Of a DNA stretch of 7,926 nucleotides, positions 1-7,926 are shown piece by piece. This DNA is from a virus (Duplodnaviria > Heunggongvirae > Uroviricota > Caudoviricetes), in IMG/VR virus record IMGVR_UViG_2648501390_000011, positions 1 through 7,926 of that record; one strand, given 5' to 3'. A program made the position numbers and the translations under genes. Numbering within the stretch: the first letter of the stretch is position 1; every line of letters begins with the position of its first letter. The notes beneath the pieces were generated by a model that worked only from the letters and a program-made list of their open reading frames with translations, was not told the origin of the DNA and did not search any database.

Positions 1-967
1 CAGGGGAAAAATGTGCATAAATCATAGTCATTTTAATATCTGAATGCCCAAGAATATCTTTCAAAACGAGTATGTTTCCACCGTTCATCATAAAATGACT
101 GGCGAATGTATGGCGCAGAACATGGGTACACTGACCTTCAGGCAGTTCAATACCAGCCCGTTTGACCGCTCGTTCAAAAGCCTTTCTGCATGGCGTGAAT
201 AACTTCCCTCTGTTTTTGGGGAGTTCGTCATAGAGAGCCTGAGATATCGGTACTGTCCTATTTTTCTTTCCTTTCGTCTTTGTATAGGTAATACGGTATT
301 TTGATAATTGGTGGCCCTGTAAGTTTTCCGCTTCACTCCAGCGCGCGCCGGTAGCCAAGCATACCTTTGCGATCATCAACAGACTTGGATTTTGAGAGTT
401 TGCGCAGGCGTCAAGTAGGCGTTTAATTTCCTCCTGAGATAGGAATGCCAATTCACCTTCAGCAATTTTAAATGTTGGAAGCCCTGCCAATGGGTTTGGT
501 GCTGACCAGTGTCCTAGTTTTTTCAATGTGCCGAATACAGATGACAGGTTACGCTGCTCAAGATTAACCGTGCGAGGTTTTACGGGGGACATGAAAACAC
601 CGTCTTCATTTTTGACCTCCCCCTTTAATCTGGCTTCCCGATATTTTGTGAAATCACCTGCTGTCAGTTCCGAGGCAATAGGATTGCCGAGACCGGTACA
701 AATAATTTTTAATTTTGCCATCAAACGCTTTGGGTCAGCGAGTGTCTGACCATACAGGGAATACCACTGCTCAATCACTTCTGACAGTTGTCGCCGATCT
801 TCTTTTTCTCCTAGCCAAGGTTTCTTGTTTACCTCGTCCATGGTGAAATTCTCAAACGCAATGGCTTCGCCTTTCGTCGCAAATTGTTTGCGTACGCGTT
901 TGCCATCTCGCCCGTTTGGGTAGCATTCACATAACCACTTTCCGTTCGGCTGTTTTCTGATGGTCAT
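1..967 (-). CDS. int: Tyrosine recombinase (phage integrase, P2/186 type); N-terminus at 967, C-terminal end lies beyond the left edge of the window
   Basis: Own translation of the minus strand from ATG (967-965) gives an uninterrupted frame down to position 2: MTIRKQPNGKWLCECYPNGRDGKRVRKQFATKGEAIAFE...HVLRHTFASHFMMNGGNILVLKDILGHSDIKMTMIYAHFSP. It contains the HxLRHT box and the catalytic-Tyr region (MIYAHF) typical of tyrosine recombinases. Absent from the ORF track only because there is no in-window stop; the listed 88..336 minus ORF is an out-of-frame shadow. Confidence 0.9.
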   Translation of the reverse strand, partial: MTIRKQPNGKWLCECYPNGRDGKRVRKQFATKGEAIAFENFTMDEVNKKPWLGEKEDRRQLSEVIEQWYSLYGQTLADPKRLMAKLKIICTGLGNPIASELTAGDFTKYREARLKGEVKNEDGVFMSPVKPRTVNLEQRNLSSVFGTLKKLGHWSAPNPLAGLPTFKIAEGELAFLSQEEIKRLLDACANSQNPSLLMIAKVCLATGARWSEAENLQGHQLSKYRITYTKTKGKKNRTVPISQALYDELPKNRGKLFTPCRKAFERAVKRAGIELPEGQCTHVLRHTFASHFMMNGGNILVLKDILGHSDIKMTMIYAHFSP

Positions 968-968
968 A

Positions 969-1601
969 TCAAAGGCTCTTAATGATTTTCAGTGCGCGGC
1001 CTATTACCTCAATGTCATCCAGTTCGCACTCAAACGATGAATCATCCTGATGCACTACTAATCTGTTTCCCGGGAGTCGTGTCAATTTTACAATGCTTTT
1101 TATCCCGTCGATGTCCACTAACCACGTACCATTTACTGGTGGTGTTTGGTTGCGATCTATTAAATAAGAATCACCAGAAGTAGTCACCAGCAGCAGGTTG
1201 CTTGAGTCTGAGGGGAGTATGCTGCTATCAATGATTGCTTTTCCAGCATCGATCAGCAAACCTCCGTTGAGAGTTGCCTTGTCAATTTCAGGAGATACAA
1301 GCTCCGAAAGAGGTTTAACTTTGCTAGAGTTCACGGAATTGATATTTCTTTTAGGGTCAATGTTTGAACCTGGATCGCCCTGTCCGGTAGTTAGCCACAG
1401 TAAAGAAACTCCTGTTTCCAAAGCGCACTGAATCACCCATTCTGCAGGAAAACTATCTCTTAAGTATCTGTTTGCCATAGTGCTTTTTGATGCGCCCAAG
1501 TGATCGCAAAGTTGCTGTCTGGACTTGAAATCATAGGCTGCCATTAGCCTATGGATAGCCTCTCTTCCCCCTGTATTCTCGCCAGCTTTTACTTGTATCA
1601 T
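969..1601 (-). CDS. cI: Phage CI-type repressor (186 CI-like: N-terminal HTH, C-terminal oligomerisation domain)
   Basis: 210-aa ORF. The N-terminus (GGREAIHRLMAAYDFKSRQQLCDHLGASKSTMANRYLRDSFPAEWVIQCALETGVSLLWLTTGQG) matches my recollection of the Phage_CI_repr HTH family. RBS-like AGGA sits upstream of ATG 1601. The stop (TGA, 971-969) is 1 nt from the int ATG, and the gene faces away from a divergent early operon. Confidence 0.8.
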   Translation of the reverse strand: MIQVKAGENTGGREAIHRLMAAYDFKSRQQLCDHLGASKSTMANRYLRDSFPAEWVIQCALETGVSLLWLTTGQGDPGSNIDPKRNINSVNSSKVKPLSELVSPEIDKATLNGGLLIDAGKAIIDSSILPSDSSNLLLVTTSGDSYLIDRNQTPPVNGTWLVDIDGIKSIVKLTRLPGNRLVVHQDDSSFECELDDIEVIGRALKIIKSL

Positions 1602-1613
1602 TTTTTAATCCTG

Positions 1614-1642
1614 TTGACGTATCAAATATTGGATCGTAGTAT
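1614..1642 (+). promoter_or_regulatory. Candidate sigma70 early (pR-like) promoter: TTGACG -17 bp- TAGTAT
   Basis: TTGACG at 1614-1619, a 17-nt spacer, and TAGTAT at 1637-1642 lie in the 119-bp cI/apl intergenic region, oriented toward the + strand early operon that starts at 1721. Confidence 0.45.
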
Positions 1643-1665
1643 CTTGGTGTATCAAATATTGAATC
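1619..1665. repeat. Two copies of a 17-bp operator-like element (GTATCAAATATTGGATC / GTATCAAATATTGAATC), 30 bp apart, each an imperfect dyad around AATATT
   Basis: Direct read: 1619-1635 and 1649-1665 are 16/17 identical. Copy 1 occupies the promoter spacer and copy 2 lies just downstream of the -10. A third partial copy (AATCAAATA) is at 1662-1670. Confidence 0.5.
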
Positions 1666-1720
1666 AAATAAAACAAGATAAAACGACGTAAACCAAACCT
1701 TAATCGAGAGATACTGCACT

Positions 1721-1969
1721 ATGAGCAACGACATTTCAATTCGTGTACCAAAAGTGATGGCGACACCAGCTGAGTTCGCGGAATGGGAAGGCCGCTCTCG
1801 CGGTTCGGTATATCAAATGATTCATAATGGTAAACTCGCTAAATTCTTGGAAAGAAAAGAAAAACCGAAAGACAGAGTATGTATACGTTACCTTGAGTAC
1901 AAAAAGGAACAAGTCAGGAAAAACATGGGCCAATCCAATTTCAACTTTAATGTCATCGTTGGTGACTAA
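1721..1969 (+). CDS. apl: Small HTH DNA-binding protein, Apl/Cox-like (excisionase / early-lytic repressor role in 186/P2)
   Basis: 82-aa ORF, first gene of the rightward operon and divergent from cI. Basic, with an HTH-like segment (PAEFAEWEGRSRGSVYQMIHNGKL). Assignment rests on position and size relative to 186 apl / P2 cox. Confidence 0.6.
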   Translation: MSNDISIRVPKVMATPAEFAEWEGRSRGSVYQMIHNGKLAKFLERKEKPKDRVCIRYLEYKKEQVRKNMGQSNFNFNVIVGD

Positions 1970-2001
1970 GTTCAATTATGAGAACTTTCTAAGGGGGCAG
2001 C

Positions 2002-2511
2002 ATGTTTGATTACAAGATTTCCAAACATCCGCATTTTGATGAAGCCTGTAGAGCTTTTGCACTACGTCACAATATGGCAAAGCTGGCAGAACGTGCAGGA
2101 ATGAATGTTCAGACACTGCGAAACAAACTCAATCCAGATCAACCGCATCAGCTCACCGCACCAGAAATCTGGTTGCTTACCGATCTGACTGAAGATTCAA
2201 CGTTGGTAGACGGTTTTCTGGCACAGATTCATTGTCTGCCATGTGTTCCGATTAATGAGGTGGCAAAAGAGAAACTGCCGCATTACGTCATGAGTGCAAC
2301 TGCAGAGATCGGGCGTGTTGCTGCAGGTGCGGTATCTGGCGATGTAAAAACCAGTGCAGGTCGTCGTGATGCTATCAGCAGCATTAACTCTGTAACACGA
2401 CTGATGGCGCTGGCGGCTGTTTCATTGCAGGCCCGTTTACAGGCTAATCCTGCGATGGCAAGTGCAGTTGATACTGTAACTGGCCTCGGTGCGTCATTCG
2501 GTTTGCTGTGA
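2002..2511 (+). CDS. cII: Phage CII-family regulatory protein (186 CII-like)
   Basis: 169-aa ORF with a strong RBS (AAGGGGG) before ATG 2002. Size and position immediately after apl match 186 CII. The N-terminus (MFDYKISKHPHFDEACRAFALRHNMAKLAERAGMNVQTLRNKLNP) matches my recollection of the phage regulatory CII family. Confidence 0.7.
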   Translation: MFDYKISKHPHFDEACRAFALRHNMAKLAERAGMNVQTLRNKLNPDQPHQLTAPEIWLLTDLTEDSTLVDGFLAQIHCLPCVPINEVAKEKLPHYVMSATAEIGRVAAGAVSGDVKTSAGRRDAISSINSVTRLMALAAVSLQARLQANPAMASAVDTVTGLGASFGLL

Positions 2512-2518
2512 GGTGCTT

Positions 2519-2719
2519 ATGCTGACGAAAGAACCATCATTTGCATCGCTGCTGGTAAAACAAAGCCCGGCAATGCACTACGGTCACGGCTGGATCATGG
2601 GGGAGGATGGTAAACGCTGGCATCCGTGCCGTTCACAAGATGAATTGCTGGCAGAACTATCTACGAAAAAACGGGGGAACAAATGGCTATTGAAGGCGCT
2701 GCGGCGACTGTTCCATTAA
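2519..2719 (+). CDS. Hypothetical small early protein (occupies the fil/dhr position of the 186 early operon)
   Basis: ATG at 2519 preceded by GAGGTG, which overlaps the cII stop; 66 aa from this start (MLTKEPSFASLLVKQ...). The track's longer 2489 start is less likely. No recognisable motif. Confidence 0.4.
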   Translation: MLTKEPSFASLLVKQSPAMHYGHGWIMGEDGKRWHPCRSQDELLAELSTKKRGNKWLLKALRRLFH

Positions 2720-3024
2720 GCCCCGGTGAACGCCTGAATGGACTTAACCATATTGCGGAGTTAAGGGCGAAAGTATTTGGCCTGAATATTGAGTCAGAGC
2801 TTGAGCGGTTTATTAAAGATATGCGTGATCCACGGGATATCAATAACGAACAAAATAAACGGGCACTGGCTGCTATATTCTTTATGGCAAAAATTCCAGC
2901 TGAACGTCATAGCATCAGCATTAATGAGCTGACCACTGACGAAAAGCGGGAGTTGATTAAAGCAATGAATCATTTTCGTGCAGTGGTGAGCTTATTTCCA
3001 AGACGGCTAACCATGCCGAATTAA
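2683..3024 (+). CDS. Hypothetical early protein, 113 aa
   Basis: ATG 2683 preceded by GGGGG with a 5-nt spacer. Its start overlaps the end of the previous ORF by 37 nt in another frame. No recognisable motif; co-oriented in the early operon. Confidence 0.5.
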   Translation: MAIEGAAATVPLSPGERLNGLNHIAELRAKVFGLNIESELERFIKDMRDPRDINNEQNKRALAAIFFMAKIPAERHSISINELTTDEKRELIKAMNHFRAVVSLFPRRLTMPN

Positions 3025-3091
3025 CCAACTAATGAAATTAATGGCGTAAACCCGCCGGGTATCCCTTTATCTAAATTCAGGAGAATTGATT

Positions 3092-3325
3092 ATGCGTAAT
3101 ATTGAAACCCTCACGACTAAAACCGGACCGGATGATGCAGGGCTTAATATTTTACTGACAGAGGCTCGTCTGGAAGAACGCCGGGCAAGGGCTGAAGCAA
3201 TGGCAGCTCGCCTTGATAGCCTGGCGTGTCATATCACATCCCGCCAGCTAAACCACGTCGAAGCAGCAGAACTACTGCGTGTAACTGCTGAAGCAATCCA
3301 GAACGAAGCGCAGGAGATCCACTAA
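3092..3325 (+). CDS. Small coiled-coil early protein (resembles the DUF2732-type ORFs of P2-like phages)
   Basis: AGGAG at 3078-3082 followed by ATG 3092; the track's 3086 start would be a TTG. 77 aa, Ala/Glu/Arg-rich helical sequence. The stop overlaps the next start (TAATG). Confidence 0.55.
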   Translation: MRNIETLTTKTGPDDAGLNILLTEARLEERRARAEAMAARLDSLACHITSRQLNHVEAAELLRVTAEAIQNEAQEIH

Positions 3326-3552
3326 TGGCTGATGCAATGGATCTTGTACAGCAGCGCGTTGAAGAAGAACGCCAGCGCCATATCCGTGCTGCCCGTGCCA
3401 AAACGCCGGGCGTGTCCCGCGTGCTTTGCATTGAGTGTGAAGCGCCAATTCCGCCAGCACGCCGCCGCGCCATTCCAGGTGTGCAGCTTTGTATTACCTG
3501 TCAGGAAATCGCAGAGCTGAAAGGCAAACATTACAACGGAGGTGCTGTATGA
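3325..3552 (+). CDS. TraR/DksA-family C4 zinc-finger protein
   Basis: 75 aa with two CxxC pairs (CIECEAPI...CITCQE) at the spacing expected for the TraR/DksA zinc finger. The start overlaps the upstream stop, and its own stop overlaps the dam start (ATGA). Confidence 0.75.
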   Translation: MADAMDLVQQRVEEERQRHIRAARAKTPGVSRVLCIECEAPIPPARRRAIPGVQLCITCQEIAELKGKHYNGGAV

Positions 3553-4406
3553 GCACCATCCTGAAATGGGCGGGAAATAAAACCGCCATTATGTCCGAAC
3601 TGAAAAAACACCTTCCTGCTGGCCCGCGACTGGTTGAACCTTTCGCGGGTTCCTGTGCTGTGATGATGGAGACGGATTACCCCAGCTATCTGGTTGCGGA
3701 TATTAATCCTGATTTAATCAACCTCTATAAAAAGGTTGCCGCTGATTGTGAATCGTTTATATCTCGCGCCAGAGTTTTATTTGAGATCGCAAACAGGGAG
3801 GTAGCTTATTACAACATAAGGCAGGAGTTTAATTACTCAACTGAAATTACTGATTTCATGAAAGCGGTATATTTCCTGTATCTCAATCGTCACGGTTACC
3901 GTGGTTTATGTCGCTATAACAAGAGTGGGCATTTCAACATTCCCTACGGTAATTATAAAAATCCGTATTTCCCTGAAAAAGAAATTCGCGCATTTGCAGA
4001 AAAAGCCCAGCGGGCAACGTTTATCTGCACCAGCTTTGATGAAACGCTGGCGATGTTGAAGGCGGGGGATGTGGTGTATTGCGATCCGCCGTATGACGGT
4101 ACGTTTTCCGGCTATCACACTGATGGTTTCACTGAAGATGACCAGTATCACCTAGCATCCGTTCTTGAACATCGATCATCTGAAGGACATCCGGTCATTG
4201 TTTCTAACAGTGACACATCCCTGATTCGTTCGCTGTATCGCAATTTTACTCACCACTATATCAAGGTAAAACGCAGCATCGGTGTGGCAGCTGGCGAGGG
4301 TAAATCAGCAACAGAAATCATCGCTGTTTCCGGGCCGCGCTGCTGGGTGGGATTTGATCCTTCGCGTGGCGTGGATAGTTCTGCCGTGTACGGAGTGCGT
4401 GCATGA
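3549..4406 (+). CDS. dam: DNA adenine methyltransferase, Dam-like (GATC-type N6-adenine MTase)
   Basis: GGAGG at 3538-3542 followed by ATG 3549. The 285-aa product has the SAM-binding motif ([10 protein letters not shown]), the catalytic DPPY motif ([10 protein letters not shown]) and long Dam-like stretches ([46 protein letters not shown]). The track's 3489 start is an upstream in-frame extension through the TraR-like gene. Confidence 0.9.
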
Positions 4407-6817
4407 GCCATGCTGATATGAACAACTGCAGCGGCTTTAACGAGATCGCCGCAGCATTCTCATGGAACAGCCCGAAAAAGGCCATTAACCCTTATCTGGA
4501 CCCGGCGGAAGTTGCGCCGGTTTCTGCGCTTTCAAACCTGATCACTCTGTACGCTGCCGATAACGAGCAGGAACAGCTGCGCCGTGAGGCGCTGAGTGAT
4601 CAGGTCTGGGAGCGTTATTTCTTTAATGAATCCCGTGATCCTGTCCAGCGCGAAATGGAGCAGGATAAGCTCATTAGTCGGGCAAAGCTGGCGCATGAGC
4701 AGCAGCGTTTTAATCCGGATATGGTCATTCTGGCGGACGTCAACGCCCAGCCTTCCCATATCAGCAAGCCGCTGATGCAACGTATTGAATACTTCAGCAG
4801 CCTGGGCAGGCCAAAGGCTTATTCCCGCTATTTGCGTGAGACGATTAAGCCATGTCTGGAACGACTGGAGCATGTACGCGAGAGTCAGCTATCCACTTCT
4901 TTTCGCTTTATGGCAAGCCATGAAGGGCTGGACGGCCTGCTGATTCTGCCTGAAATGAGTCAGGATCATGTGAAACGCCTGTCCACCCTGGTAGCTGCGC
5001 ATATGAGCATGTGCCTTGATGCAGCTTGTGGCGATTTGTATGCCACCGATGACGTTAAGCCAGAAGAAATCCGCAAGACATGGGAAAAGGTGGCGGCGGA
5101 AACCCTGCGTCTGGATGTCATCCCACCTGCGTTTGAGCAACTCCGTCGGAAAAGAAACCGCCGTAAACCCGTGCCCTATGAGCTCATTCCGGGTTCGCTG
5201 GCGCGTATGTTGTGCGGCGACTGGTGGTATCGGAAATTATGGAAGATGCGTTGCGAATGGCGGGAAGAGCAGTTGCGCGCTGTTTGCCTGGTCAGCAAAA
5301 AAGCATCTCCTTATGTCAGCTATGAAGCCGTGATGCATAAACGTGAGCAGCGCCGTAAGTCGCTGGAGTTTTTCCGTTCTCATGAACTGGTGAACGAAGA
5401 CGGCGACACGCTGGACATGGAGGATGTGGTAAACGCCAGCAGCAGCAACCCTGCGCATCGCCGCAATGAGATGATGGCCTGTGTTAAAGGTCTGGAGCTT
5501 ATCGCGGAAATGCGCGGTGACTGCGCCGTTTTCTACACTATCACCTGTCCGTCGCGTTTCCATTCCACGCTAAATAACGGCAGACCAAACCCGACCTGGA
5601 CAAACGCGACGGTAAGACAAAGCAGCGATTATCTGGTCGGCATGTTTGCTGCATTTCGTAAGGCGATGCACAAAGCCGGGTTGCGCTGGTATGGCGTGCG
5701 GGTGGCTGAGCCGCATCATGACGGCACAGTTCACTGGCACCTGTTGTGTTTCATGCGCAAAAAAGACCGCCGTGCCATTACTGCATTACTGCGTAAGTTT
5801 GCCATCCGTGAAGACCGCGAGGAGCTGGGCAATAACACTGGGCCGCGCTTTAAGTCTGAGTTGATTAACCCGCGCAAAGGAACGCCGACAAGCTACATCG
5901 CGAAATATATCAGTAAGAACATTGACGGTCGTGGTCTGGCTGGCGAGATCAGCAAGGAAACGGGTAAATCTCTGCGTGATAACGCTGAATACGTGAATGC
6001 CTGGGCGTCTCTGCATCGTGTTCAGCAATTCCGCTTCTTTGGTATTCCGGGGCGTCAGGCTTATCGTGAACTTCGCTTGCTGGCTGGTCAGGCGGCAAGG
6101 CAACAGGGTGACAAAAAAGCAGGTGCGCCGGTACTGGATAACCCGCGTCTTGATGCCATTCTGGCTGCTGCTGATGCTGGCTGTTTTGCCACCTACATCA
6201 TGAAGCAGGGCGGCGTGCTGGTTCCCCGCAAATATCACCTTATCAGAACAGCTTATGAAATTAACGAAGAGCCGACCGCCTATGGCGATCACGGTATTCG
6301 TATTTATGGCATCTGGTCACCCATTGCAGAGGGCAAGATCTGCACTCATGCCGTGAAGTGGAAAATGGTTCGTAAGGCCGTTGACGTTCAGGAGGCGGCA
6401 GCCGACCAGGGCGCTTGCGCCCCTTGGACTCGTGGCAATAACTGTCCCCTTGCTGAAAATTTGAACCAACAAGGGAAAGACAAATCAGCTTATGGGGATA
6501 CCAGAACGGACATTACCCGCATGGATGACAAGGAGTTGCACGATTACCTGCACAGTATGAGCAAAAAAGAGCGCCGGGAACTGGCTGCAAGGTTACGCCT
6601 GGTGAAACCGAAACGGCGTAAAGACTACAAACAGCGAATTACAGACCATCAGCGACAGCAGCTCGTCTATGAGCTGAAGTCCAGAGGATTTGATGGCAGC
6701 GAGAAAGAGGTCGGTTTACTCCTTCGCGGCGGCAGTATTCCGTCAGGAGCAGGCCTGCGTATCTTCTATCGGAACCAGCGTTTGCAGGAAGATGATAAGT
6801 GGCGGGATCTGTATTAA
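4403..6817 (+). CDS. A: Phage replication initiation endonuclease gpA (HUH rolling-circle initiator, P2 A family)
   Basis: 804-aa ORF. HUH metal-binding motif ([15 protein letters not shown]) and a downstream paired-tyrosine motif (YIAKYISKN), as in P2 gpA. The start overlaps the dam stop (ATGA at 4403-4406). Confidence 0.9.
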
Positions 6818-6909
6818 TTACGCGGGTTAACAATTCGTGCTCTTAATAATACCAGGCATATCAGGCTGATGAACGTAAAAAAACGTTTTACATCAGTAAG
6901 ATTATTATA

Positions 6910-6929
6910 TACTGTAAATATAAACAGTG
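6910..6929. promoter_or_regulatory. LexA (SOS) box, TACTGTAAATATAAACAGTG
   Basis: CTGT-N8-ACAG with an AT-rich spacer; 17/20 match to the E. coli consensus TACTGTATATATATACAGTA. It lies 40 bp upstream of the RBS (AGGAGG, 6960-6965) of the ORF at 6970 and overlaps candidate -10 hexamers. Confidence 0.7.
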
Positions 6930-6969
6930 GTTATGTATACAGTATTGCTTTGGTGTCATAGGAGGAAAG

Positions 6970-7158
6970 ATGCAGGACTATTTTTTGGAGTCTTTGAAGC
7001 TCCAGCGCATTGATTTTTTTCTTAAGCTTGTAGCGGCTAGTGAGTGTAGTGATGAAGAGAAGGGGCTGGCCCTGCAGTGGGTTTCTGAACTAACAGATGA
7101 ACTCATGGCAAAAATCAGAACCCACGAATACAACCGCTCAATGGATGTCATCAGCTGA
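6970..7158 (+). CDS. Small SOS-regulated protein, candidate N-terminal part of a Tum-like antirepressor
   Basis: 62-aa ORF with a strong RBS, directly downstream of the LexA box. Its stop (TGA 7156-7158) overlaps the RBS of the DinI-like ORF. Function inferred from context only. Confidence 0.5.
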   Translation: MQDYFLESLKLQRIDFFLKLVAASECSDEEKGLALQWVSELTDELMAKIRTHEYNRSMDVIS

Positions 7159-7168
7159 GGTGACTTTT

Positions 7169-7402
7169 ATGCGCATTGAAATAATGATCGATAAAGAGCA
7201 GAAGATTAGCCAGTCTACCCTGGACGCTCTGGAGTCCGAGCTTTACCGCAACCTGCGCCCCCTGTATCCCAAAACGGTAATTCGTATCCGCAAAGGTAGC
7301 TCTAACGGTGTGGAACTTACCGGACTGCAACTGGACGAAGAAAGAAAACAAGTGATGAAAATTATGCAGAAAGTGTGGGAAGACGACAGCTGGCTGCATT
7401 AA
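7169..7402 (+). CDS. dinI: DinI-family protein (SOS-inducible; DinI/Tum C-terminal-domain-like)
   Basis: GAGG at 7157-7160 followed by ATG 7169; 77 aa (MRIEIMIDKEQKISQSTLDALESELYRNLRPLYPKTVIRIRKGSSNGVELTGLQLDEERKQVMKIMQKVWEDDSWLH). Length and pattern match E. coli DinI as I recall it (MRIEV...start, acidic W-containing C-terminus). The track's 7097 start is an upstream extension in the same frame. Confidence 0.75.
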   Translation: MRIEIMIDKEQKISQSTLDALESELYRNLRPLYPKTVIRIRKGSSNGVELTGLQLDEERKQVMKIMQKVWEDDSWLH

Positions 7403-7537
7403 GAAACGTTGCTGGCGTCTGAACTTGCTTCTGGCGTCAGCAAGGTTGAACAACGAGCCCTTGCGAGGCGTTAGCTCTGTAGTGCATGTCTATGCCGCAT
7501 GAGATCGCATGATCGTTTGAGGATCGTTTTTGCTAAG

Positions 7538-7561
7538 GCCCGCCAGAACTGGCGGGCTTTT
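7538..7561 (+). terminator. Rho-independent terminator (GCCCGCCA-GAAC-TGGCGGGC-TTTT)
   Basis: Perfect 8-bp GC-rich stem with a 4-nt loop, followed by TTTT; 135 bp downstream of the dinI-like stop and upstream of the AT-rich cargo gene. Confidence 0.6.
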
Positions 7562-7726
7562 GCGTAGATCATGCAGGTGCATGAAAACCACTGCATAAAG
7601 CGGGCAGGCGTGGCGGGGATACGAGCGCGCGCAACAGTGTAACAATCTGGATCTAATGTGATATAGTTACTGTAAATATTATTAACTATTCTTATATGCA
7701 TTATTAAATATTTTAATGGAGCGTTT

Positions 7727-7926
7727 ATGGAAAAATATCAAGATGAGGAATATGTAGATGATTTAACTGAGCGTGTTTTTCTCATTAAGCAACAACTGGA
7801 AGCGGGAAAACTAAAAATAGCTCATCATCTTGTAGAAGGTTTTATTGAAAGTTTTAAAAGAATAAGGCTGCGACAGGATGGTAAAGTTGACCCTTCTACT
7901 GTTGATGGCAGAATAAGGGCTATGGG
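7727..7926 (+). CDS. Hypothetical protein, N-terminal 66 codons only (continues past the right edge); AT-rich accessory gene
   Basis: GGAG at 7718-7721 followed by ATG 7727. Own translation MEKYQDEEYVDDLTERVFLIKQQLEAGKLKIAHHLVEGFIESFKRIRLRQDGKVDPSTVDGRIRAM has no stop before the window end. By my count the first 64 nt are about 31% G+C, against about 52% in a sampled 60 nt of gpA. Confidence 0.55.
   Translation, partial: MEKYQDEEYVDDLTERVFLIKQQLEAGKLKIAHHLVEGFIESFKRIRLRQDGKVDPSTVDGRIRAM

Follow-up and report, generated by a model that had tools for sequence, protein, structure and literature searches.

We found that the cluster of GATC sites at 7503-7570 of a 7,926-nt stretch of DNA from a tailed phage (Caudoviricetes; positions 1 to 7,926 of IMG/VR record IMGVR_UViG_2648501390_000011, hereafter "the window," meaning this whole stretch) lies, by homology, in the cos site, the DNA-packaging signal, of a P2-like prophage of the Fels-2 type. 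Of the four sites, two form a pair spaced one helical turn apart, which is conserved in phages with this type of cos and missing from the satellites that share it. The explanation that we favor as a whole, with somewhat less than even confidence, is that the region is the right arm of cos and that the phage-specific pair most likely is a mark readable by Dam and SeqA; it would not be a gate for the AT-rich cargo gene downstream, as a preliminary description of the window had proposed.

P2-like cos loci were retrieved with a pattern of the cos core (AAAACC-N8-AAG-N-GGGC-N-GGCG-N-GGCGGGG; at least 120 IMG/VR loci) and, from GTDB species representatives, with a type-specific core pattern (64 loci). 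Because the retrieval patterns were limited to the cos core, there was no ascertainment on the GATC region. Two cos types were found among the loci, namely type A (cos-A), that of P2 and 186, and type B (cos-B), that of Fels-2 and this window. The pooled comparison held 113 distinct type-B cos sequences, distinct sequences not being equal to independent lineages, and the phage and satellite classes were assigned by homology of the neighboring genes. All reliably named GTDB hosts were Enterobacterales; two metagenome-assembled genome (MAG) records whose titles name Chloroflexia (L153) and Bacillota (L185) probably represent mis-binned contigs. The cos site of the window, 7484-7633, is composed as follows.

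7484-7512, no strand assigned: three distal GCATG repeats (7484, 7497, 7507), candidate terminase-recognition repeats, at least 90% conserved in 66 cos-B sequences and invariant between phages and satellites.
7503-7506, no strand assigned: GATC no. 1, not conserved and lineage-specific; found in 17/66 sequences, and at position -104 in 11/84 pair-bearing sequences; P2 has GATT here.
7511-7525, no strand assigned: the conserved pair, GATC-N7-GATC (7511-7514 and 7522-7525), in phase, its starts 11 bp apart and located at -96/-85 relative to the top-strand nick.
7538-7561, plus strand: intrinsic-terminator-like hairpin, GCCCGCCA-GAAC-TGGCGGGC followed by TTTT; stem 7538-7545/7550-7557.
7567-7570, no strand assigned: GATC no. 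4, not conserved and lineage-specific; found in 20/66 sequences, and at position -40 in 12/84; 186 has GGTC here.
7568-7606, no strand assigned: proximal cos core on the right-end side, ATCATGCAGGTGCATGAAAACC...AAAGCGGGCA, matching the last 40 nt of 186 and P2 base for base.
7607-7625, no strand assigned: predicted 19-nt cohesive end, GGCGTGGCGGGGATACGAG, with nicks at both borders, by homology to 186, P2, SEN8 and Cartapus.
7626-7633, no strand assigned: short conserved left-end flank, CGCGCGCA; homology to relatives ends at ~7632-7642.

The cohesive end is predicted from its homology to those of 186 and P2. GGCGTGGCGGGGATACGAG is identical to the annotated 186 cos (GGCGTGGCGGGGAAAGCAT) at 13/19 positions and to the P2 cos at 12/19, the first 12-13 nt being contiguous, and it belongs to the 19-mers related to GGCG(A/T)GGCGGGGAAAGCA(C/T) that form the cohesive ends of the P2 family. 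The identical 19-mer occupies positions 1-19 of phage SEN8, where it is labeled "putative cos site," and the last base of the SEN8 record corresponds to 7606; phage Cartapus likewise has an annotated cos that contains the cohesive-end stretch of the window. The conserved core and its flank (7568-7633) align gap-free to 186, P2, Fels-2, satellites and one Ralstonia phage. Homology to ~90 phage records then breaks off at ~7632-7642, ~10-15 bp past the cohesive end, and the GC content falls from ~0.52 to 0.30 after ~7625. The location is also that of a P2-family cos: the window corresponds to the early part of a P2/186/Fels-2-like prophage, with CI, Apl/Cox, CII, Dam, gpA, orf62 and DinI in order, and the site has the accessory region next to gpA on one side and the portal gene Q on the other, the portal gene being found downstream in the E. 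coli and Fels-2 loci and in 128 related loci. In an E. coli element of 98% identity, 32 bp separate the end of the cargo gene from the portal stop; therefore, cos is only possible upstream of the cargo. The preliminary description had the sites, repeats, hairpin and Dam gene of this region right while overlooking that they belong to a cos site. Such a site is in itself ordinary and very common: a P2-family cos element is carried by 1272/5426 complete E. coli genomes.

As the preliminary description stated, four GATCs occur within 68 bp at 7503, 7511, 7522 and 7567 (a fifth is at 7650), and the short repeats that it noted around them are present: GCATGAGATCG at 7498-7508, GCATGATCG at 7507-7515, and GATCGTTT twice, at 7511-7518 and 7522-7529. 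In the lineage of the window, GTTT follows each GATC. The departure from chance that it also claimed is marginal. The window holds 33 GATCs, compared with 29 +/- 4.8 expected, and has no overall excess; the probability of four GATCs within 68 bp anywhere in the window was 0.026 with dinucleotide shuffles and 0.063 with uniform placement. Taken alone, the four-site cluster is only marginally unusual, and we did not rely on this statistic as evidence.

Conservation, in turn, supports a nonaccidental origin for 7511 and 7522 and not for 7503 and 7567. Among the 113 distinct type-B sequences, only 7511 and 7522 of the four sites are conserved: a GATC is found at 7511 in 62/66 and at 7522 in 60/66 of the distinct type-B sequences first compared, and in the pooled set, 79-80 of the 84 pair-bearing sequences have the pair at -96/-85 from the nick with the 11-bp spacing. 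While the pair is ~95% conserved, its own 7-nt spacer (21 variants among 66 sequences) and the next 10 nt are free to vary. The consensus is GCAT-GATC-S-N4-AG-GATC-G, in which the AG before the second GATC is conserved at 96-99% and the G after it at 87%. Three sequences (L106, L117 and L167) have lost the third GCATG repeat and kept its GATC (GAAGGATC); both copies read AGGATCG in these. From this pattern, we infer that purifying selection acts on the pair, as GATC itself. By the same comparison, the sites at 7503 and 7567 appear recent and incidental, being no commoner than chance. Additional GATCs near cos, which might have been a sign of selection for density, were rejected as such, since they are confined to one sublineage and number 0.31 per sequence compared with ~0.5 expected.

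The two cos types share a ground plan. In type A, three GCAT repeats at ~-125 to -95 are followed by a CCAG..CTGG inverted repeat, and GATC is nearly absent; in type B, the order is three GCATG repeats, GATC-N7-GATC, a hairpin with a T-run, and the core. The GCAT triples of the P2/186-type cos hold the same position as the GCATG triple.

Satellites offer a natural comparison. There are 14 distinct type-B cos sequences just downstream of a Psu-like gene, and these loci are, by gene content, P4-like satellites. Their cohesive end, proximal core and triple GCATG repeat match those of the phages, at identical spacing (gap-free alignment); their middle segment (~55 bp between the repeats and the core) has the same length as the phage segment and is unrelated to it. 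In the type-B satellite cos sequences, the GATC pair is found in 0/14, and the terminator hairpin is also absent. With the IMG/VR loci and the 64 GTDB species representatives together, the pair is carried by 76/80 phage-context sequences versus 0/14 satellite-context sequences (Fisher P = 1.8e-13, from sequences that lack phylogenetic independence). One Pantoea MAG holds both a satellite (L144) and a pair-bearing, Dam-encoding phage (L170). Since cos is the sole region common to P2-like helpers and P4-like satellites (PMC9122126), the parts that are shared should mark the packaging signal, which makes the GCATG triple and the core the likely terminase signal; the GATC pair and the terminator appear as a phage-specific insert in the cos spacer. 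Satellites with the same cos core and no pair further suggest that the pair is dispensable for terminase recognition of cos. Homology and conservation together show the pair to be specific to phages. Satellites with a Fels-2-type cohesive end (L131, L144, L148, L152, L153, L157-L159, L168, L176, L180, L191, L017, L060 and L075) occur mostly in Pantoea and Erwinia, and their middle cos segment resembles the inverted repeat of the P2/186 type (GGCCAGCAGCGGCGCGG), not the terminator of their presumed helpers.

The hairpin that accompanies the pair in phages has the GC-rich stem-loop, U-run and location at the end of a transcription unit that characterize an intrinsic terminator, and the terminator placed by the preliminary description at the end of the SOS module was recovered here as this hairpin with its TTTT. 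The 81-nt hairpin region folds at -36.5 kcal/mol (z = -4.45), with a stem of 8-11 bp and a 4-nt loop. Across 29 diverse sequences, 87.9% of cells are paired, with 3 compensatory pairs, compared with 28-46% in slid controls. Explicit pair counting was used here in place of RNAalifold on the mixed phage/satellite set, which gave only 3 pairs because the satellites lack the hairpin. A consensus terminator scan did not list 7538-7561, owing to a T-run of only 4 T. Homology and conservation mark the hairpin as a terminator-like element, which would close the rightward transcription unit of the early and SOS genes 46 nt ahead of the nick. The pair and the terminator are always found together, and satellites lack both.

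We propose a mechanism for the pair that starts from the methyltransferase gene of the element, whose presence in the preliminary description is borne out by the Pfam match; in the identical E. coli locus, this gene is annotated as "DNA adenine methylase."

3549-4406, plus strand: Dam, a D12-class N6-adenine DNA methyltransferase (PF02086, E = 3e-76), just upstream of gpA and overlapping it.
4403-6817: gpA; the Dam gene overlaps it.

Among loci with a readable upstream region, a Dam homologue is present in 27/30 type-B phages versus 1/22 type-A phages, and the GATC pair in 30/30 and 0/22 of these, respectively. All that the two copies of the pair share is GATC. SeqA needs two hemimethylated GATCs on one helical face, ~one to three turns apart (PMC2691817), and the spacing of the pair, 11 bp start to start in 79-80/84 sequences, falls within this range. 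Because GATC alone is common to the copies, the 11-bp phasing is of the SeqA type, the lineage is enriched in Dam, and P1 pac provides a precedent, we tentatively suggest that GATC as a Dam target may be the unit under selection, although we hold this less firmly than the explanation as a whole. Replication would leave both sites of the pair hemimethylated, on one helical face and 11 bp apart, which is the minimal substrate of a SeqA dimer. SeqA occupancy, or the methylation state beside cos, could then tie the use of cos to the state of the phage DNA, both in replication and in methylation, and the phage Dam, expressed from the replication operon, would speed SeqA release. In a more specific scheme, which we consider unlikely, the Fels-2-type cos would be methylation-checked: the hemi- or unmethylated pair, bound by SeqA or otherwise read, would delay terminase on new circles until methylation by Dam. 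The methylating Dam would be that of the host, plus in most of these phages the phage's own.

Several observations weigh against a Dam/SeqA mark in a working cos. The conserved AG and G flanks and the AAGGATC repeats of Aeromonas phages (see below) would also fit a sequence-specific protein site that contains GATC, and the extra GATCs near cos are not enriched, unlike those at oriC or P1 pac. The association of Dam with cos-B is largely confounded by shared ancestry. In addition, a Dam-less type-B sublineage (L034, L036, L138 and L140) retains the pair; therefore, phage Dam is not required, and host Dam would be sufficient in Enterobacterales. For these two reasons, the co-occurrence of Dam was rejected as proof of function and is used as supporting evidence only. 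If satellites package well without the pair, its role in packaging would be regulatory at most. The cohesive ends are deduced from homology. Finally, an E. coli genome that is identical over 7440-7640 has a prophage with truncated terminase and D genes; this prophage is probably defective, and cos may perhaps be a relic in that host. The genome is L203 (NZ_CM194531.1 3121360-3130560), and the truncated genes are those of the terminase gpP and of D (VgrG-like).

Other loci add to the picture of methylation near cos. In L034, L138 and L140 (~-3100 to -480 from cos), Dam is missing and a zinc-finger gene abuts gpA; the dinI module is also missing, gpA ends 483 bp before cos, and the pair and terminator are kept. 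A third cos type occurs in P2-like phages of Aeromonas, where AAGGATC is repeated at -126, -107 and -95, all three copies being conserved, and the GCATG triple is absent. In this type (L194 5900-6120; L197-L200), the cos end is GGCGTGGCGGGGTAACGAT, and a fourth AAGGATC lies ~65 bp past the cohesive end. Aeromonas LPM4 encodes an adenine methyltransferase of the N6_N4 class (N6_N4_Mtase, different from the D12 class) and a C5 methylase beside gpA. One Ralstonia relative has no GATC within ~240 bp of cos; Ralstonia is not known to have Dam. A Ralstonia-type cos pattern gave 0 matches in IMG/VR, the search string probably being wrong. A-tract flanks may slow Dam. A search of the methylome literature on Salmonella and Klebsiella gave nothing on these GATC sites.

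The same conservation could be explained by a protein that binds independently of methylation, which we regard as possible if doubtful when taken by itself, and nearly as likely as the Dam/SeqA mark. The pair would then be an A-K-GATC-S site repeated one helical turn apart and bound by a cos accessory factor of phage or host, or by a factor acting on the terminator. This would account for the conservation of flanking bases beyond GATC (the AG before site 2 at 96-99% and the G after it at 87%), for the two AGGATCG copies of L106, L117 and L167, for the three or four AAGGATC repeats at the same place in Aeromonas phages, for the fixed position at -96/-85, and for the retention of the pair without phage Dam. 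It lacks a known candidate protein, however, and the copies usually read ATGATC[G/C] and AGGATCG, with little in common beyond GATC; furthermore, the reliably named hosts all belong to Dam+ taxa, the lineage is strongly enriched in Dam, and satellites manage without the pair. If the protein were the terminase itself, the pair would be an integral, cosB-like part of recognition in the Fels-2 type, possibly methylation-dependent as in P1 pac. The P1 precedent, the location of the pair, adjoining the GCATG repeats within the conserved cos arm, and the Aeromonas GGATC triple in the position that the GCATG triple has in the others are consistent with this idea. It is nonetheless quite improbable, since 14/14 satellites with the same cohesive end and repeats do without the pair and yet are presumably packaged by such terminases, and the P2/186-type cos works without GATC. 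The pair also lies outside the published core, which is 55 bp around the ends (PMC5694545 and PMC9594776, citing Ziermann & Calendar 1990). We give only a slight chance to the pair having no function and having arisen by chance and hitch-hiked in the conserved cos arm. The weak in-window statistics (P = 0.026-0.063), the lineage-specific nature of 2 of the 4 sites and the lack of enrichment of extra sites would agree with it, but ~95% conservation of the pair beside a freely varying spacer and next 10 nt, and the wholesale replacement of a segment of the same length in satellites, would not. An element at the RNA level seems slightly less probable still. Here, a GAUC-N7-GAUC hairpin 5' of the terminator would affect termination, stability or a small RNA derived from the 3' untranslated region. 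The minimum-free-energy fold does pair the two GAUCs, in a stem of 5-6 bp adjoining the terminator, and the pair and terminator co-occur in phages and are both missing in satellites. Against it, the eight positions are invariant and show no covariation, whereas the terminator stem does covary; a 4-bp stem requires no specific sequence; no Rfam family matches; and the spacings of the Aeromonas repeats differ (19 and 12 bp).

The least probable of these explanations, in our judgment, is the one given in the preliminary description, in which a switch of the SeqA or OxyR/Lrp type, set by methylation of the clustered GATCs, controls expression of the cargo gene or read-through at the terminator. 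The features concerned are the following.

7639-7667, plus strand: promoter-like site for the cargo gene, GTAACA-17-TATAGT with TG, from a consensus scan only; in a variable AT-rich segment, with the GATC at 7650 in its spacer.
7727-7926, plus strand: start of the AT-rich cargo open reading frame, in the cos-adjacent defense hotspot; 557 amino acids in the E. coli genome identical over 7440-7640 (L203 4788-6461).

In favor of such a switch, GATCs lie 12-30 nt upstream of the terminator stem, the element encodes Dam, and in the lineage of the window GTTT follows each GATC, which we take to be loosely like the GATC boxes of pap. The cos nick, however, falls between the terminator and the cargo, and the pair is conserved alongside unrelated cargo genes and without any cargo. 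The type-B gap from cos to portal is 550-3500 bp in 64/78 loci, so the cargo lies downstream of cos; in at least 12 pair-bearing phages, the gap is 155-270 bp, too short for cargo. The cargo gene appears to have a promoter of its own at 7639-7667, beyond the end of homology with relatives, and a consensus scan found no promoter-like sites at 7480-7560 on either strand. No known regulator site was found to overlap the pair. IHF, Lrp, DnaA-box and leftward-promoter readings of the pair, considered by eye and by promoter scan, were rejected because the spacer and flanks are too variable, which is also incompatible with a single regulator site. Two of the 4 sites are, moreover, lineage noise. Thus, neither of the marks of a Dam-dependent switch, a regulator site at a promoter and an association with a regulated gene, is found here, and gating of the cargo by the GATC pair is not supported, whether by read-through or by an OxyR/Lrp-type regulator. 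The cargo protein has no match in Pfam and a weak match to DitB in PADLOC (E = 6.6e-10); it is probably an uncharacterized defense gene of the cos-adjacent hotspot, which is known in P2-like phages (PMC9122126). The cargo hotspot lies on opposite sides of cos in the two types (L010-L193): in the P2/186 type, cos is ~173 bp from the portal gene and the cargo is upstream, and in the Fels-2 type, mostly 0.5-3.5 kb of cargo lies between cos and portal. A 37-kb circular "plasmid" record of E. coli 13P477T (L002, CP019275.1) is a copy of this phage, with frameshifts in CI, Dam, gpA and the cargo gene among many genes and a 1-bp deletion in the GATC spacer; it would be a decaying copy or, if sequencing errors account for these changes, the genome of an episomal or excised phage.

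Upstream of cos, the SOS module of the preliminary description was found in place, with a LexA box and a DinI gene.

6912-6927, plus strand: LexA box, CTGTAAATATAAACAG, a perfect CTGT-N8-ACAG upstream of orf62 and dinI, in the place of the 186 p95 LexA site.
7169-7402, plus strand: DinI/Tum-like gene, the last before cos (PF06183, E = 6.6e-23; DinI in the annotation of relatives).
7405-7447, plus strand: hairpin right after the dinI stop codon, a 19-nt inverted repeat; fold -30.2 kcal/mol, z = -2.2.

The LexA box overlaps an AT-rich, -10-like region before orf62 (6970-7158), and the module is the counterpart of the p95/tum SOS operon of 186. The hairpin at 7405-7447 is possibly equivalent to the partial terminator t95a, which in 186 is located at the equivalent position. 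A block, GGTTGAACAACGAGCCnnnGCGAGGCGTTAGC, comes next (hairpin and block together take up 7405-7478) and is also present in 186, between orf97 and t95b, and in Yersinia phage MLG42; this stretch may serve as a partial terminator of the t95a kind or as an RNA element. An Rfam scan of 6800-7926 gave 0 matches at E <= 1.

The idea of a cargo switch can be dropped. What is new here is the architecture of the Fels-2-type cos, with a built-in terminator and a nearly invariant one-turn GATC pair that phages keep and satellites lack; a GATC pair in a P2-like cos was not described in any paper that our literature searches found. The pair is a concrete and cheaply mutable candidate target that could link phage Dam and SeqA to packaging or to helper-satellite competition. 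The comparison of phages with satellites also reveals a shared packaging signal, the GCATG triple and core at fixed spacing, which would be useful for cosmid design and for annotating cos in P2-like prophages. The role of the Dam genes of temperate phages is "still not well understood" (PMC7556043). If the Fels-2-type cos were methylation-checked, a long-unexplained phage Dam would have a P1-like role in packaging, in a cos phage, and P4-like satellites would have discarded the check and hence be packaged ahead of their helper.

Among known systems, the switches of pap/Lrp, agn43/OxyR, opvAB and gtr recall the window in having close GATCs in noncoding DNA of a Dam+ enterobacterial element; unlike in these, the sites here have no overlapping promoter or conserved regulator site, and they lie upstream of a terminator, inside cos, and are conserved whatever the neighboring gene. 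The SeqA pairs at oriC (PMC2691817) recall it in having two same-face GATCs ~one turn apart that share only GATC, in Dam+/SeqA+ hosts. Here, however, there is a single pair instead of a dense array, and no replication origin, the P2/186 origin being inside gene A. P1 pac has seven TGATCA/G hexamers flanking the cut, and its cleavage is gated by Dam methylation, with a phage-encoded Dam (PMC10028697). The region resembles it only loosely: both have short GATC-containing repeats in the packaging site of a Dam-encoding phage, but the conserved GATCs number two here (with four GATCs in this lineage) and lie to one side of the nick, at a distance of 85-96 bp, in a cos system and not in headful packaging, and from the indirect comparison with satellites (0/14), the repeats seem dispensable for recognition. 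The SOS operon of 186 (p95, LexA box, tum, t95a, orf97, t95b) has the same LexA-boxed promoter, DinI/Tum-like gene, hairpin and final terminator before cos. Unlike in 186, orf97 is missing here, and the final terminator is 46 nt from the nick instead of ~160 nt and coincides with the cos inverted repeat.

The closest likeness is to the cos of P2, 186 and P4 (Ziermann & Calendar 1990, cited in PMC9122126, PMC5694545 and PMC9594776). That site has a 19-nt 5' cohesive end starting with GGCG(A/T)GGCGGGG, as is predicted for the window. Also in common are the conserved core with AAAACC-N8-AAG-N-GGGC just upstream of the end, the GCAT(G) repeats ~95-125 bp upstream with the CCAG...CTGG inverted repeat between, and the location beside a defense hotspot, with accessory genes on the gpA side and the portal gene on the other. 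The Fels-2-type site differs in the last 6-7 nt of the cohesive end, which read nTACGAG here versus A[A/T]AGCA[C/T], and in the side of the hotspot, which is mostly downstream of cos rather than upstream. It also differs in its middle segment, where the inverted repeat has turned into a terminator with a T-run and the phased GATC pair has been inserted.

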